From Armatimonadota bacterium (GTDB taxonomy: Bacteria > Armatimonadota > UBA5829 > JAUSEB01), in contig JAUSGG010000025.1 in the NCBI GenBank assembly GCA_030649165.1, positions 3,967 through 67,966 of the forward strand: DNA of 64,000 bases, written 5' to 3'. Shown one piece after another: positions 1,668 to 62,809 of this stretch; position 1 is the stretch's first letter, and each line of letters begins with the position of its first letter. Under the pieces are notes generated by a model. It was not told the origin of the DNA. It made no database searches and was given only the letters and a program-made list of their open reading frames with translations. Position numbers and translations under genes: made by a program.

Positions 1668-4319
<2,652 letters not shown>

Positions 4320-4320
4320 A

Positions 4321-5397
4321 CTAGCTGATCCCGCAGGTACCAGAAATCACATAGTCTCTGAACCCAGGGAACTCCTTGTCTATATCGATCCACACTGCTT
4401 GTCGGACGTCCTCATGGCTCCGACAGCCCTCTGGGACATTGCAGGGCGGAAACCTCTCCGCAGAAGGATAGCCCCAGTCACTCTCGGAAAAGAAGGCTTT
4501 GAACTTCTCATTGTGGTACTCCGCTAGCCAGCGGTACTTGTCTACTATTCGGGGTCGGTCCAGATTCTTGCGGATCTGCTGGAGAATCTGGTCCCTGTGG
4601 TCCCTCATGTAATCGCCCTGCCATTTCGACTCGGAGAAGGCCTTTGCAAATTCTAGATAGTCGACGAACAATAGACCGTCAGGAGCTTTCTCTAACAACG
4701 AAGCGGCCTCCACGCGACATCGGTAGTCCGGCTCGATGAATCCTTTGACCTTCTCTGCAACAGCAGGGTCAACCACAATACGCGGGTAGATAGCTTTTTC
4801 CCTCTCGAACTCGAAGGCCTCTACAAGCCCGTGGCTGAATATCATCAAGTCGTTTTCGAAGTGTTTGCCAGTCACGATGCCACCACGTACGAAGAATCCG
4901 CTGTGCGCCATCGCCCACTGCATGAAGGCCAGTTCGTAAAGCATATCATTCAGATGGTCCAATGCACACGAAACGACCACGCAGTCAGAGAACATTCTCA
5001 CAGAAATCGGGCCAGGAAAGTACCTGGGCACGACCTCGGATATTTGTCTGAGTGTTCCGCTGAGATTCGCAATGATATGGCGTGCTCGTGCTAGATCGGA
5101 CTCCGCGTCCTCAATGATTTTCTTGAAGCCGAGTATATCTATGAACGCGACCAAGTGTTCATCGTATGATATCTCCGAGTTTTGCCAAGGGTTCTCAAGA
5201 GCGCGTGTTGCACCCAGCGCGATCGCTGCCTTCACGTGCTCGTCGCTCACACTCGGAAACTCTTTCTGAATCTCACTAGCGGTAGAACCTTCCGCAAGAC
5301 TGGCCAGGACGGTACGTAGAGTCACCCGCGTACCTTTCAGCACGGGCTCGCCTCCGCACACTTTGGCGTCACGCACGATGTAGTCTCTGTAATCCAT
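4321..5397 (-). CDS. DUF433 domain fused to nucleotide-cyclase/GGDEF-like palm domain plus ~130-aa C-terminal region of unknown function
   Basis: The N-terminal 70 aa (MDYRDYIVRDAKVCGGEPVLKGTRVTLRTVL...) are ~85% identical to the stand-alone DUF433 protein at 6454-6699. The following region has palm-domain motifs VAFIDILGFKKIIED (compare DxDhFKxIND / FxDIxGFT), MFSDCVVVS (compare GGDEFvv / iGDa) and FVRGGIVTG (compare RiGihtG). It ends 1 nt before alaS. Confidence 0.6.
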   Translation of the reverse strand: MDYRDYIVRDAKVCGGEPVLKGTRVTLRTVLASLAEGSTASEIQKEFPSVSDEHVKAAIALGATRALENPWQNSEISYDEHLVAFIDILGFKKIIEDAESDLARARHIIANLSGTLRQISEVVPRYFPGPISVRMFSDCVVVSCALDHLNDMLYELAFMQWAMAHSGFFVRGGIVTGKHFENDLMIFSHGLVEAFEFEREKAIYPRIVVDPAVAEKVKGFIEPDYRCRVEAASLLEKAPDGLLFVDYLEFAKAFSESKWQGDYMRDHRDQILQQIRKNLDRPRIVDKYRWLAEYHNEKFKAFFSESDWGYPSAERFPPCNVPEGCRSHEDVRQAVWIDIDKEFPGFRDYVISGTCGIS

Positions 5398-5410
5398 GTG
5401 CCAACTCGAC

Positions 5411-5614
5411 CTAGACCTTGCCGGGGTCTCTCAGTTGTGTGAGCACACTGTCAAAATCCTCCGGCGTTTCCTGTCCGCGCTCGATCTTCGCCAATAGGTC
5501 GTCCAATTCTTCTGTCAGTTTAAGATAAGCCCTATAGCCAATGACCACCGACTTCTTCCGCCCTTTGTCGTCAACTATGTACTGGATACTTCCTGTTCTT
5601 GGCATCAATCTCAC
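5411..5614 (-). CDS. small conserved protein (67 aa), first gene of cassette A; possible antitoxin/adaptor
   Basis: 84% identical to the 67-aa ORF at 6708-6911. It sits 13 nt upstream of the DUF433-fusion gene. Confidence 0.55.
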   Translation of the reverse strand: MRLMPRTGSIQYIVDDKGRKKSVVIGYRAYLKLTEELDDLLAKIERGQETPEDFDSVLTQLRDPGKV

Positions 5615-5638
5615 CTCTCCCGAGCGCCTGTTCTCCCC

Positions 5639-5950
5639 TCACGCCACATACACCCGCTCCAGGTTCTCCAGAATATGCCTTCGACGGATGTAATTTTCGC
5701 TTTGTTCGACTGACTCCCGCTCGACTAGATCGACTTTTCTTCCGAGAAGACCGCTCAGTTCGTCCTCGACGCGCACGAGGTCGAACAGACTGTATCGCGC
5801 ATCCGTAGCGAACGTGACGAGAACATCTACGTCGCTATCCGGCCTGAAATCCTCGCGCAGCACGGAGCCGAACAGCGCAAACTCGGTTATCTTCCAATGC
5901 TTGCAGAAGTCAGCGATCTTCTCATGGTCAACCGGAATGTGTAACGTCAT
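5639..5950 (-). CDS. nucleotidyltransferase (MNT / Pol-beta superfamily), apparently orphan (no HEPN partner)
   Basis: [20 protein letters not shown] motif (GS...DxD NTase). The start is moved to the internal Met MTLHIPVDH, since the upstream 29 codons lie in intergenic repeat. Confidence 0.75.
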
Positions 5951-6085
5951 CACTGTCTCCGTAAGGCGACTTCTAAAACTCACGATTCCTAAGAGAAGGC
6001 TGGTTTCGGCATTTGAAATGCCGAAACACCGGCGCAACTGACCAGTTGTTCTCCGTGCGCTCGTATACGACTACGTAGTCTTTCA

Positions 6086-6457
6086 TCATTCTGCTGCCTG
6101 ACGCGGTTTCCGCACACGCACTTTATGGTCGGTCACTATGATAAAACAACCAGCCCAACTCTCGACGTCCTCCGTGCCGAAGACAGTTTGAAGACGTTCG
6201 CGTAAAGTGATACGGCTCGGTTCGCGCAATCGCACGACCACTATTCCCGAATGAACACCGAATACGAACCGACGCAAGTCCGAGAAATCCATGTCTTGAG
6301 TAACAAACAGCCGACCGGCTTGCTGGGCTGCTGCCCATACTTTCTCATCGTCCGCCCCCTGACAGCCCTCAATGGGAACAGTATCCACATCGTGTCCGAA
6401 GGCGGCAATAACGTCACGAAGGGACGCCGGCAGGTTTTCGTCCAGCTTGATCCTCAT
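6086..6457 (-). CDS. DUF5615 (PIN-like) toxin
   Basis: MRIKLDENLPASLRDVIAAFGHDVDTV...FVTQDMDF is typical of DUF5615. 4-nt ATGA overlap with the upstream DUF433 gene. Confidence 0.8.
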   Translation of the reverse strand: MRIKLDENLPASLRDVIAAFGHDVDTVPIEGCQGADDEKVWAAAQQAGRLFVTQDMDFSDLRRFVFGVHSGIVVVRLREPSRITLRERLQTVFGTEDVESWAGCFIIVTDHKVRVRKPRQAAE

Positions 6458-6699
6458 ACAGCCCCGGGCACTCCCGGCGCCGGAAGATCCTCCTGAGCTG
6501 AAGTCGCCGCAAACGCGATCGCCGCCCGGATGTGATCCTCGTTGAGGGTCGGAAAATCCTGCAGTATCTCGGCTACGGTTGATCCTTCAGCCAGACTCGC
6601 AAGCACAGTGCGCAAGGTTACCCGTGTGCCTTTCAGCACAGGCTGTCCGCCGCATACTTTGGCATCACGCACAATATAGTCTCTGTAGTCCATACGCAA
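6454..6699 (-). CDS. DUF433 antitoxin-like protein
   Basis: MDYRDYIVRDAKVCGGQPVLKGTRVTLRTVLASLAEGST... is a DUF433 signature. Translationally coupled to the DUF5615 gene. Confidence 0.8.
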   Translation of the reverse strand: MRMDYRDYIVRDAKVCGGQPVLKGTRVTLRTVLASLAEGSTVAEILQDFPTLNEDHIRAAIAFAATSAQEDLPAPGVPGAV

Positions 6700-6707
6700 A
6701 CTCGAAT

Positions 6708-6911
6708 CTACACTTTGCCGGGATTTCTCAGTTGTGCGAGGACAGTATCGAAGTCCTCCGGTGTTTCCTGTCCGCGCTCGATCTTCACTAGAAGATCGTC
6801 CAAGTCTTCCATGAGCCTGAGGTACGCCTTATAACTCATCACCACCGATTTCTTCCGGCCTTTGTCGTCGACTATGTATTCGATACTGCCTGTTCTCGGC
6901 ATTAGTCTCAC
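6708..6911 (-). CDS. small conserved protein (67 aa), paralog of 5411-5614; first gene of cassette B
   Basis: MRLMPRTGSIEYIVDDKGRKKSVVMSYKAYLRLMEDLDDL... 8 nt upstream of the DUF433 gene. Confidence 0.55.
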   Translation of the reverse strand: MRLMPRTGSIEYIVDDKGRKKSVVMSYKAYLRLMEDLDDLLVKIERGQETPEDFDTVLAQLRNPGKV

Positions 6912-7045
6912 TTCTGACGACGGTCCAACTCAGAACTCAGCGCTCCTAAGGACAGCCGGTTTCGGGCCGGCGCTGGCTGCCTGCTTCGGCAGCGACGCTG
7001 CCGCTCTGCTACCGAAGGATCGGAAACACAGCTTTTCGATAGAGA

Positions 7046-35349: not shown

Positions 35350-35757
35350 TTAGGCGCTGTCGTCGAAGCCAAGATAGCGGGCTGCCCAGCGAACAACCGC
35401 CTCAGCCAAACGAACGGCTTCTCGGTAATCCTCTTCCGTGAGTGGTTCTTCCTCGCCGGGGTAGCGGGTTGTGACGGCGTAGGCGCTTAGGCGAGCCGAA
35501 TCGTCAACTTCGGGGGAACGCGGGATGTCCGCGGGTAGCAGGTCGAGGAGTTTCTGTAGGTTGTGTGTATAGGGGAAATCGACGCCGGCCGCCACGAGTA
35601 TCGCTTTGAGGCTCTTCTCGACCGCCTGTTGGGCGTGGTAGCAAAGTGTCTCATACATGCCGTATTCGGGCAGAGGGCCGCGCGCCATAGCAAGATCGGC
35701 CCTGGCGTATTGCATCCATTGTTGAGGTGAGCCGAAAGCTGGACGTTCAGGCGGCAT
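35350..35757 (-). CDS. HEPN domain toxin-like protein
   Basis: YHAQQAVEKSLKA ... TRYPGEE is typical of HEPN. Confidence 0.8.
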   Translation of the reverse strand: MPPERPAFGSPQQWMQYARADLAMARGPLPEYGMYETLCYHAQQAVEKSLKAILVAAGVDFPYTHNLQKLLDLLPADIPRSPEVDDSARLSAYAVTTRYPGEEEPLTEEDYREAVRLAEAVVRWAARYLGFDDSA

Positions 35758-36076
35758 AGATCTCCTTGCCTTCGCGAAGGACTGCCCGGTATATGAGGCC
35801 TATCGTGTCCTTGTGTTTTTCGAGGTCCGTCGGGGTAGCGACTACGATATCGACGGCGACCGAGATGCCGGATAGGCGCTGGTAGAGGTCCATCGCCGTA
35901 TGGCGGCGGTGCGTGCCGTCCGGCATTACGACCATAACGTCGATGTCGCTGTCCGGCCCGGCCTGGCCGCGAGCAGCGGAGCCGAACAGGATGATGCGCA
36001 ACGGATGCGCGGCTTCGACGATGCGCTGAACCAATTCATCAATCTCTGCTTTGTTGGGTCGTTCCGGATAGGTCAT
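35747..36076 (-). CDS. MNT nucleotidyltransferase antitoxin-like
   Basis: LFGSAARGQAGPDSDIDVMVV. 11-nt overlap with the HEPN gene. Confidence 0.85.
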   Translation of the reverse strand: MTYPERPNKAEIDELVQRIVEAAHPLRIILFGSAARGQAGPDSDIDVMVVMPDGTHRRHTAMDLYQRLSGISVAVDIVVATPTDLEKHKDTIGLIYRAVLREGKEIYAA

Positions 36077-62442: not shown

Positions 62443-62533
62443 TGGCGGAGGGAGTGGGATTCGAACCCACGGCCCCGATGAATCGGGACGACGGTTTTCA
62501 AGACCGCTCGATTAAACCGCTCTCGCATCCCTC
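62443..62533 (-). tRNA. tRNA-Ser (anticodon UGA), type II with long variable arm
   Basis: Minus strand: GGAGGGATGCGAGAGCGGTTTAATCGAGCGGTCTTGAAAACCGTCGTCCCGATTCATCGGGGCCGTGGGTTCGAATCCCACTCCCTCCGCCA. Acceptor GGAGGGA/TCCCTCC, anticodon loop CTTGAAA, T-loop GGTTCGAATCC, discriminator G plus CCA. Confidence 0.85.
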
Positions 62534-62809
62534 CGCGTCGATACATTATACAAGCGAGCCCACTTAATGTCAATTAGTGTCAGCGGAGCGGTTCTCGGTT
62601 GTCGATTGACGGTTGTCAGTTGGTCTCTACTCGTTCCTCCCCCGTTTTTTCGTTGACATCCTCCCGGTCGAGCCTGTATAACATGTTTGGTCAGCGCGTG
62701 AGGTTAAAGCCTCACGCTATCATAATAAAAGCAAGCTAAAGCAAGCTTCGGGCGCCGAATCCGCGCAACAGCGCGATAATTGTAACAGTTCAGGAACCGA
62801 GAGAAGATT

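Follow-up and report, generated by a model that had tools for sequence, protein, structure and literature searches.

Proteins of the DUF433 family (COG2442) are known as antitoxins of VapBC-type modules. COG2442-PIN systems were predicted, and in the survey of Makarova et al. (2009) PIN was the only partner of DUF433 (PMC2701414). The antitoxin function has been validated: the protein binds its own promoter and is degraded by ClpXP, and in VapBC10 of Synechocystis it is a separate, degradable polypeptide (PMC3834315). A different toxin is found in the PanA-PanT pair of the Burkholderia prophage phi52237 (YP_863932.1/YP_293707.1). PanT, described as a "putative nucleotide cyclase", is a validated type II toxin which is toxic alone in E. 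coli, forms complexes with its antitoxin PanA, a separate DUF4065/Panacea protein, and is neutralised by it (Kurata et al., 2022, PMC8832971). Its inhibition follows the order transcription > translation > replication (PMC8832971), and it provokes RelA-dependent ppGpp. Toxin and antitoxin-type domains within a single chain are found in CapRelSJ46 (PMC9712102) and in fused MNT-HEPN proteins (PMC13000451); in such proteins the single chain implies regulation in cis, beyond antitoxin turnover alone.

The locus considered here lies in a 64,000-nucleotide stretch of an Armatimonadota genome (contig JAUSGG010000025.1), hereafter the window. One gene of a low-GC island was proposed by an earlier, sequence-only reading to encode a protein of two parts, a DUF433 domain followed by a palm domain of the nucleotide cyclase type. 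The intact reading frame, which ends with a TAG codon (4323-4321), and a Pfam match to DUF433 at residues 7-60 bear out the two-part organisation. The features of the locus are collected below. The operon 5614-4321 is interpreted as a toxin-antitoxin or defence-type module in which a PanT-type palm toxin is fused behind a DUF433 antitoxin/DNA-binding domain, a reading to which we give a probability of roughly 0.55.

Table 1. Features of the fusion locus and of the paralogous cassette (window coordinates).
Feature	Position	Strand	Remarks
alaS (alanyl-tRNA synthetase)	1668..4319	-	syntenic anchor
DUF433 + cyclase-like toxin domain fusion, 358 aa	4321..5397	-	single uninterrupted ORF
DUF433/COG2442 antitoxin-type domain, residues 1-67	5197..5397	-	Pfam PF04255, E 4.3e-16
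Class III cyclase-like palm domain (predicted), residues ~75-250	4648..5175	-	D87, D138, R171, G172, R206
Family-specific helical extension, then subfamily-specific tail, residues 251-358	4324..4647	-	
Small upstream gene, weakly RelB/Phd-like, 67 aa from GTG	5411..5614	-	co-oriented with the fusion gene
Orphan MNT-type nucleotidyltransferase	5639..6037	-	Pfam NTP_transf_2, E 8e-16; likely start M30, ~103 aa
Paralogous cassette	6086..6911	-	67-aa gene, DUF433 antitoxin and DUF5615 PIN-like toxin
DUF5615 PIN-like toxin, paralogous cassette	6086-6457	-	Pfam DUF5615, E 1.6e-21
DUF433 antitoxin, paralogous cassette	6454-6699	-	Pfam DUF433, E 1.2e-20
67-aa gene, paralogous cassette	6708-6911	-	84% identical to the product of 5411-5614

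The DUF433 part of the fusion protein has a fold of a beta-hairpin and three helices, and matched PDB entry 2GA1 (E 0.017) and phrog_11928 (E 1.7e-9). It had been regarded as a near-copy (~85% over residues 1-70) of the neighbouring 81-aa DUF433 protein. This could not be maintained: the identity amounts to 77% over 56 residues (43/56; 73% at the DNA level), and in the DNA alignment of the two cassettes the likeness fades near residue 62 of the fusion. Since the N-terminus is matched just as closely (62-77%) by DUF433 proteins of unrelated metagenomes, it is not a recent copy of its neighbour. Substitution rates between the two paralogues (dS 1.25-2.1, saturated; dN/dS 0.06) indicate that the duplication is old and that the DUF433 part is under purifying selection.

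The fusion was found in one organism only. No second DUF433-cyclase-like fusion was encountered: not among the 120 homologues listed for the C-terminal part, not among the 150 best-scoring matches when 1.84 billion cluster representatives were searched exhaustively with phmmer, and not among the 120 most similar DUF433 proteins, which are all 70-113 aa long. This rarity is what would be expected from an assembly artefact, or from a recently decayed, pseudogene-like chimera without function. Against it, an independent Logan assembly of 1860 bp (SRR13727527) is 100% identical to positions 4038-5897 of the window, the fused reading frame included, and thus agrees that both domains belong to one polypeptide. 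The junction offers neither another stop codon nor another start codon, the intact frame retains every residue that is invariant in the toxin family, and the saturated dS and low dN/dS of the DUF433 part speak for long-standing constraint. An artefact or decayed chimera is therefore given only a very slim chance.

The C-terminal part of the protein carries the motifs VAFIDILGF (D87), MFSDCVVVS (D138) and FVRGGIVTG (R171, G172); the codons of D87, D138, R171 and R206 are located at 5137-5139, 4984-4986, 4885-4887 and 4780-4782, respectively. An alignment of 117 homologues shows no variation at D87, D138, G172 and R206, and has R171 in 115 of the sequences, which agrees with the earlier expectation of conserved acidic positions. 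All family residues are present in the window protein, namely E198, Y204, P205, D240, K287 and W290 in addition to the five mentioned above; K287 and W290 lie in the helical extension, and the tail contains an FPxF motif. The AlphaFold model (pLDDT 85.9, pTM 0.78, with low confidence at residues 309-327 and 353-358) displays the beta-alpha-alpha-beta-beta-alpha-beta palm fold of class III cyclases. In the model, D87 falls in strand 79-88 and D138 at strands 132-136/139-145, as fits metal-binding sites, and in HMMER alignments both residues align with the matching Asp of Rv1625c.

The palm had been compared with nucleotide cyclases, GGDEF proteins and mCpol alike, and of these the predicted class III cyclase-like fold was retained. 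Neither a GG[DE]EF signature nor a best structural match to a GGDEF diguanylate cyclase was obtained, and the same applies to a best match to the mCpol/Cas10 palm and to an association with CARF or 2TM proteins. With class III cyclases, including PycC of Pycsar, the protein shares its predicted fold, both metal-binding Asp and the Arg of beta4. In contrast to them, the fusion protein has an additional helical C-terminal extension and no effector partner, and it stays below the PF00211 threshold: no match was obtained at E <= 1, while 3 of 42 homologues gave one (best E 0.022) and the family profile against PDB cyclases reached E 0.17-0.95, which is sub-significant though consistent. It also lacks the transition-state Asn and Arg of helix alpha4 (..VN.A.R.E..), neither of which is conserved in the family: residue 192 is I or V in 98 of the 117 homologues and residue 196 is E, K, N, Q or others. 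The register used here (G188..A194..E198) was set by inspection of the motif and by what we take to be the Pfam consensus of this helix.

Residues 68-358 gave no match in Pfam, NCBIfam or PADLOC, and the libraries of these three resources that were searched contain no model of the family. Profile comparison of the cyclase-like part (query A3) with PanT (gp8 of phi52237) resulted in an hhalign probability of 99.8% (E 8e-29, 233 columns), and the two are homologous over the palm as well as over the C-terminal helices. BLASTP against PanT gave E 1e-11, the identity is 26%, and the fusion protein matches phrog_23933 (E 2e-31) and phrog_21097 (E 1.3e-6), both of which it shares with PanT. On these sequence comparisons the cyclase-like part is assigned to the PanT family. 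The motifs FIDILGF, FSD, RGG and PR are common to both systems, as is a location in accessory or mobile DNA near other toxin-antitoxin genes; panT of phi52237 lies between integrase and portal genes, beside another toxin-antitoxin pair. They differ in the antitoxin, which is fused in frame at the toxin N-terminus here and is the separate Panacea protein in PanA-PanT, and in the small RelB/Phd-like gene added upstream in the window. No DUF4065/Panacea gene occurs at the window locus, and a phmmer search with PanA over the fetched family loci recovered phi52237 only. The architecture had been considered as unrecognised. No further example of the fusion as such appeared in the searches described above, but because its cyclase-like domain is homologous to a validated toxin, PanT, the novelty is less than was assumed.

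The PanT-type family is large and patchy, with thousands of cluster representatives across bacteria, archaea, plasmids and phages. Most members stand alone, without a recognisable antitoxin gene, so constitutive toxicity may not be a trait of the family. A uniformly housekeeping distribution of the homologues, which would have spoken against the earlier proposal, was not observed; the surveyed contexts are of the defence or mobile type. Members were found in defence islands, inside type I restriction-modification operons, in P2-like prophage hotspots and on 85 plasmids, and other neighbours are CBASS, AbiH, a dCTP-deaminase-like gene, GmrSD and integrases. The family also includes a subfamily linked to a ParA-like ATPase, and 600-aa fusions in Bacteroidota.

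The earlier proposal of a domain generating a signalling nucleotide leads to a cyclase as in Pycsar or CBASS, whose second messenger would act on a separate effector protein. The earlier observation that no obvious effector (TIR, TM, nuclease) is adjacent was reproduced, as ORF, Pfam and PADLOC analysis detected no effector gene beside the fusion at the window locus. In the sampled, non-redundant loci of the family, the 150 nearest neighbours include no recurrent nucleotide-sensor effector, and no PADLOC Pycsar model was matched. One candidate, a Cap15-like 2TM protein next upstream of a family member (locus L047; PADLOC 2TM effector, E 1e-30), was rejected as a cognate nucleotide-sensing effector: the preceding gene encodes a CD-NTase (E 1.9e-74), and the pair is a neighbouring CBASS in a type I restriction-modification operon. 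PanT, moreover, is toxic without any partner (PMC8832971). Together with the missing transition-state Asn and Arg, these results make a signalling role quite improbable.

Class III cyclase-like ATP-binding domains exist in some transcription regulators. By analogy, the fusion protein could be a one-component regulator of the downstream alaS or of its own operon, with DUF433 as the DNA-binding part and the cyclase-like domain as a nucleotide-binding sensor that is not toxic. This possibility is considered unlikely, although slightly less so than a signalling cyclase. The metal-binding Asp pair is strictly invariant in a mostly stand-alone family without DNA-binding domain, which argues for catalysis, the characterised homologue PanT is a toxin, and family members occur in defence or mobile settings, not in regulatory ones.

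The fusion had been proposed to occupy the slot of a PIN toxin. The paralogous cassette indeed carries a DUF433 antitoxin and a DUF5615 PIN-like toxin, and a downstream PIN toxin was found in this cassette only (6086-6699); at the fusion the order is DUF433, cyclase-like domain and alaS, with the alaS start codon 1 nt past the stop codon of the fusion gene. Of two related Armatimonadota MAGs, L099 displays DUF433-PIN-alaS, a canonical DUF433 and DUF5615 pair in the corresponding position before alaS, and L105 DUF433-alaS. The synteny in these MAGs supports the idea of a toxin swap. A 264-aa gene upstream of DUF433 in L099 was considered as an unfused family member and turned out to be unrelated (hhalign probability 0.3%). 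In the best reading the DUF433 of the fusion is a COG2442, VapB10-type antitoxin/DNA-binding domain, and the fusion takes the place that DUF5615 PIN has in the sister cassette and in the related genome. The antitoxin domain is thus the one of the canonical COG2442-PIN pairs, whereas the toxin is cyclase-like instead of PIN and both parts form one polypeptide.

The small gene upstream is separated from the fusion gene by 13 bp and is annotated by NCBI as 64 aa with an ATG start at 5605. The short distance, a dN/dS of 0.06 against its paralogue, which reflects strong purifying selection in both cassettes, and weak RelB/Phd-like matches of both copies are in line with a system of three parts, in which the small protein is the true antitoxin and DUF433 is only a DNA-binding or autoregulatory handle, here joined to the toxin. 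The Pfam matches of the small protein (RelB-like, E 0.0013; PhdYeFM, E 0.082) nevertheless miss the family thresholds, no homologue beyond its paralogue was found in 5.8 billion proteins, nor any match in the PDB, and related genomes keep DUF433-PIN without it. As the highly similar small proteins accompany two unrelated toxins, PIN and cyclase-like, they more likely partner the shared DUF433 or DNA than either toxin. The three-part system is for these reasons regarded as rather unlikely, yet it is the least unlikely of the functional alternatives to a DUF433-controlled toxin discussed so far.

On its upstream side the small gene adjoins an orphan MNT gene which was absent from the earlier reading. 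Its product matched NCBIfam MntA-like (E 2.5e-11) under the cut-off and PADLOC PDC-S09, and no HEPN partner lies beside it; a complete MNT+HEPN pair is present elsewhere in the window, at 35350-36076. The MNT was examined as a possible partner, in the window and in L001/L002, and dismissed: phmmer detects no relationship between the two MNTs, and NTP_transf_2 is not within the 25 most frequent families of the 150 neighbours, so that the adjacency is read as coincidence.

In the preferred reading, that of a PanT-type toxin under DUF433 control, the active palm domain would catalyse a two-metal nucleotidyl-transfer reaction and, as with its phage homologue, arrest growth via shutdown of transcription and translation; toxicity of the fusion protein is extrapolated from PanT at the low identity given above. 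The attached DUF433 would keep the enzyme inactive in cis and/or tether it to the operator of the operon, possibly helped by the small RelB/Phd-like protein. Phage infection, degradation of the antitoxin part by proteases or another trigger could then free the activity, by analogy with CapRel. Compared to CapRelSJ46 and the fused MNT-HEPN proteins, the domains are unrelated, and the antitoxin part is N-terminal and the toxin part C-terminal.

A broader proposal is offered as tentative. PanT-type proteins might be defence effectors that act alone and form a large class so far unrecognised, whose palm, derived from class III cyclases but without the cyclisation-specific Asn and Arg, makes a toxic nucleotide or nucleotidylates a macromolecule. 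DUF433 would then be, like Panacea, a swappable control module, and the window protein a single-chain sensor-effector gated by DUF433.

Altogether, a toxin-antitoxin module in fused form is the best reading of the locus, in preference to a new signalling system. With the fusion protein the DUF433/COG2442 antitoxin would gain a partner outside the PIN nucleases, and the PanT-type toxin family, of which one member, PanT of phi52237, is characterised, a natural in-frame antitoxin-toxin fusion. As the metal-binding Asp pair is invariant and the transition-state Asn and Arg of cyclases are lost, the family appears to be a good target for a new toxic nucleotidyl-transfer reaction, and the fusion offers a handle on how a PanT-type enzyme is held in check.

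The genes from alaS to the pfkB-type kinase gene are arranged in tandem, all on the minus strand. In the 358-aa protein, Pfam detected DUF433 at residues 7-60 (E 4.3e-16) and no further domain outside these residues; NCBIfam and PADLOC gave zero matches. The low-GC segment rich in toxin-antitoxin (TA) genes at about 4500-7000 (52-55% GC, against 61-65% in both flanks) fits an acquired island of horizontally gained DNA. The start codon of alaS lies 1 nt past the stop of the fusion ORF, a spacing which suggests that an essential gene may be co-transcribed with a TA-type operon.

Features of the window around alaS and additional genes mentioned in the text
Feature	Position	Strand	Remark
alaS	1668-4319	-	
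358-aa ORF (fusion)	4321-5397	-	
Small 67-aa ORF of cassette A	5411-5614	-	64 aa per NCBI, ATG at 5605
MNT-type nucleotidyltransferase	5639-6037	-	directly upstream of the fusion module; without HEPN partner
DUF5615 PIN-like gene	6086-6457	-	
81-aa DUF433 gene	6454-6699	-	
Second 67-aa ORF (cassette B)	6708-6911	-	
pfkB-type kinase gene		-	beyond the second 67-aa ORF
MNT (109 aa) + HEPN (135 aa)	35350-36076	-	complete, overlapping pair
tRNA-Ser(TGA)	62443-62534	-	sole RNA gene (ARAGORN, Rfam)

An orphan MNT gene was likewise seen 3' of the family member in two fetched loci (L001, L002), with no detectable kinship to the MNT of the window.

The fusion was confirmed by an independent Logan assembly, in which a 1,860-bp contig with the same unbroken ORF matches window 4038-5897 at 100% identity. 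At the junction, neither an alternative DUF433 stop codon nor a start for a separate downstream gene was found. The fusion proposed by the sequence-only reading is thus borne out and, so far as sequence can show, real. A search with residues 68-358 gave 227 relatives, and DUF433 is absent from all 119 that are listed besides the window protein itself. None of the best 150 of 2,325 phmmer matches spans query residues 1-60 plus the cyclase-like part, and the 120 closest DUF433 proteins all measure 70-113 aa, so that no other such fusion occurs in these three sets. An artefact could likewise appear only once, and its probability is close to negligible given the Logan contig.

The N-terminus of the fusion shares 77% identity (43/56) with the neighbouring DUF433 protein, a value below the ~85% over 70 residues estimated before. 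As DUF433 proteins of unrelated metagenomes reach 62-77%, this value gives no sign of recent copying. DNA similarity between cassette A (small gene and fusion) and cassette B (small gene, DUF433 and PIN) begins at the small gene's ribosome-binding site, reaches about codon 62 of DUF433 and ends there. The proteins encoded by the two small genes share 84% identity. With dS values of 1.25 and 2.1, synonymous sites have reached saturation in the small-gene and DUF433 pairs, each of which has a dN/dS of 0.06. The duplication is therefore old, and purifying selection acts on the small gene as well as on the fusion's DUF433 portion. Among 5.8 billion proteins the small gene has no homologue besides its paralogue, and it is this gene that links the two cassettes.

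The 119 listed relatives of the C-terminal part are mostly 215-340 aa long (range 180-453) and devoid of Pfam domains. Across 117 aligned sequences, D87, D138, G172 and R206 are invariant, while V83, A84, F85, I88, L89, G90, F91, F136, S137, R171, E198, A202, Y204, P205, I207, D240, K287 and W290 are conserved in at least 90%. The best 50 Foldseek matches of the predicted structure are all class III cyclases; the predicted fold of the C-terminal part is a cyclase-like palm. A palm-region profile searched against the PDB hit cyclase chains in 9 of 12 matches, at sub-significant E-values of 0.17-0.95. In its alignments to Rv1625c, VAFIDILGF pairs with VLFADIVGFT and FSD with SGD, two sites whose aspartates are the metal-binding pair of class III cyclases. 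In the model, D87 ends strand 79-88 and D138 lies in the turn that connects strand 132-136 to strand 139-145, as would be expected for this fold. The family's helix alpha4 has the pattern G188-x-[AG]-L-[IV]-x-A-Y-x-L-E-S, which by motif inspection is in register with the Pfam cyclase consensus G-d-t-V-N-l-A-s-R-l-E-s. In this register, position 192 (Asn in cyclases) holds I or V in 98 of the 117 sequences, and position 196 (Arg in cyclases) is variable; the residues stabilising the transition state of cyclisation are therefore missing. The invariant R206 (motif Y-P-R) follows the helix. The family thus keeps the catalytic dyad of a predicted two-metal nucleotidyl-transfer site, and standard cyclase chemistry is probably not kept.

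Using an Enterobacter family member, tblastn located the family in six P2-like Burkholderia phage records and 85 plasmids. The homologue in prophage phi52237, gp8 (YP_293707.1), is preceded at 2 bp spacing by the DUF4065 protein gp9; integrase and portal genes flank the two on either side, and another toxin-antitoxin pair is next to them. Homology of the window family to gp8 is secure from profile comparison (hhalign probability 99.8%, E 8.3e-29, 233 columns including the C-terminal helices), pairwise BLASTP (E 1e-11) and shared matches to phrog_23933 and phrog_21097. Kurata et al. (2022; PMC8832971) characterised gp9-gp8 as PanA-PanT(Bur. phage). They report that PanT is a toxin in E. coli, that PanA neutralises it and co-purifies with it, and that HHpred assigned it to adenylate/guanylate cyclases (97% probability). 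Transcription is inhibited most, followed by translation and lastly replication, and RelA-dependent ppGpp accumulates without ATP depletion (PMC8832971). The toxin/effector role guessed for the fusion therefore has experimental backing from a homologue, and its cyclase-like toxin is in itself not new.

DUF433/COG2442 was predicted as an antitoxin of PIN toxins, the sole partner found (Makarova et al., 2009; PMC2701414). VapBC10 of Synechocystis was validated, with VapB10 binding its promoter and being degraded by ClpXP2 (PMC3834315). That the small protein, which is under purifying selection, would be the real antitoxin is rather unlikely. Directly upstream of alaS, one related Armatimonadota MAG (L099, 5001-8302; AlaRS 64% identical) carries DUF433 and DUF5615 PIN genes and another (L105, 4001-6939) DUF433 alone. 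In the window (1668-5397) DUF433 is fused there to the cyclase-like domain, and the canonical small-gene/DUF433/PIN cassette lies further upstream. The toxin slot is thus filled by PIN, nothing or the fused domain in three genomes with an AlaRS identity of just ~64%, the pattern expected if the toxin moiety was exchanged behind a conserved antitoxin, as had been proposed. The fusion could instead be a regulator that binds DNA, lacks toxicity and senses nucleotides, perhaps tied to alaS; with a toxic homologue in PanT, this is improbable.

Directly supported here are the two-domain architecture, the predicted fold, the conserved catalytic dyad, kinship with a validated toxin, selection on both parts and the replacement of PIN in the syntenic slot. 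In the preferred reading, the palm domain would perform metal-dependent nucleotidyl transfer leading to growth arrest, by shutdown of transcription and translation if PanT is a guide. DUF433 would restrain the palm in cis and/or take it to the operator, together with the small RelB/Phd-like protein. Damage to the antitoxin or a signal of infection may bring about release, as with the fused system CapRel (PMC9712102). To this reading of a DUF433-restrained, trigger-released PanT-type toxin as a whole we give a probability of about 0.55. The sequence-only reading had found a real object and interpreted it essentially correctly. What is novel is the combination and fusion, in one lineage, of two known module types; the kind of system is not new.

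The cyclase-like family was found by a pattern scan (one genome per species) in 314 bacterial and archaeal species, and exhaustive phmmer over 1.84 billion cluster representatives gave the 2,325 matches at E <= 1e-10, DUF433-only proteins included. In about 80 non-redundant fetched loci, surveyed with our own crude ORF calls, family genes are mostly solitary. The 150 nearest neighbours matched 117 different Pfam families; they therefore show neither a conserved operon nor any nucleotide-sensing effector that recurs. A Pycsar-like signalling cyclase is highly improbable in view of these neighbourhoods and of positions 192 and 196. A single partner recurs, a ParA-like AAA_31/CbiA ATPase (~355 aa) encoded directly upstream in eight BLAST-clustered loci (L007, L039, L044, L049, L052, L070, L074, L077); there the family members are short (218-240 aa) and the genes abut or overlap (L007, 4931-6660). 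L069 and L073 have an upstream gene of similar size outside this cluster. Hosts of the two-gene module include Klebsiella, Pseudomonas, Paenibacillus and Methanothrix. In some Klebsiella strains it is broken by IS elements (L004).

In seven loci (L028, L038, L040, L041, L050, L061, L081), from Bacteroidota and one Cloacimonadales MAG, the domain follows a conserved ~300-aa N-terminal region without Pfam or PADLOC match in proteins of ~600 aa. In L038 and L040 two more large genes (554 and 478 aa) flank this gene. Further neighbours are AbiH, a dCTP-deaminase-like gene, PIN_12, HNH, GmrSD, ORF6N and integrases, and on plasmids HipBA and recombinases. Type I R-M loci (L047, L064 and others) host a family gene between hsdM and hsdS/R. 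In L047 (1304-9573) the R-M operon, with hsdM, hsdS and hsdR, holds, between hsdM and hsdS, the family gene and a complete two-gene CBASS (CD-NTase and 2TM Cap15-like effector), a compact nested defence island. Large, linked to defence islands and without a model in Pfam, NCBIfam or PADLOC, the wider family is a more interesting object than the fusion.
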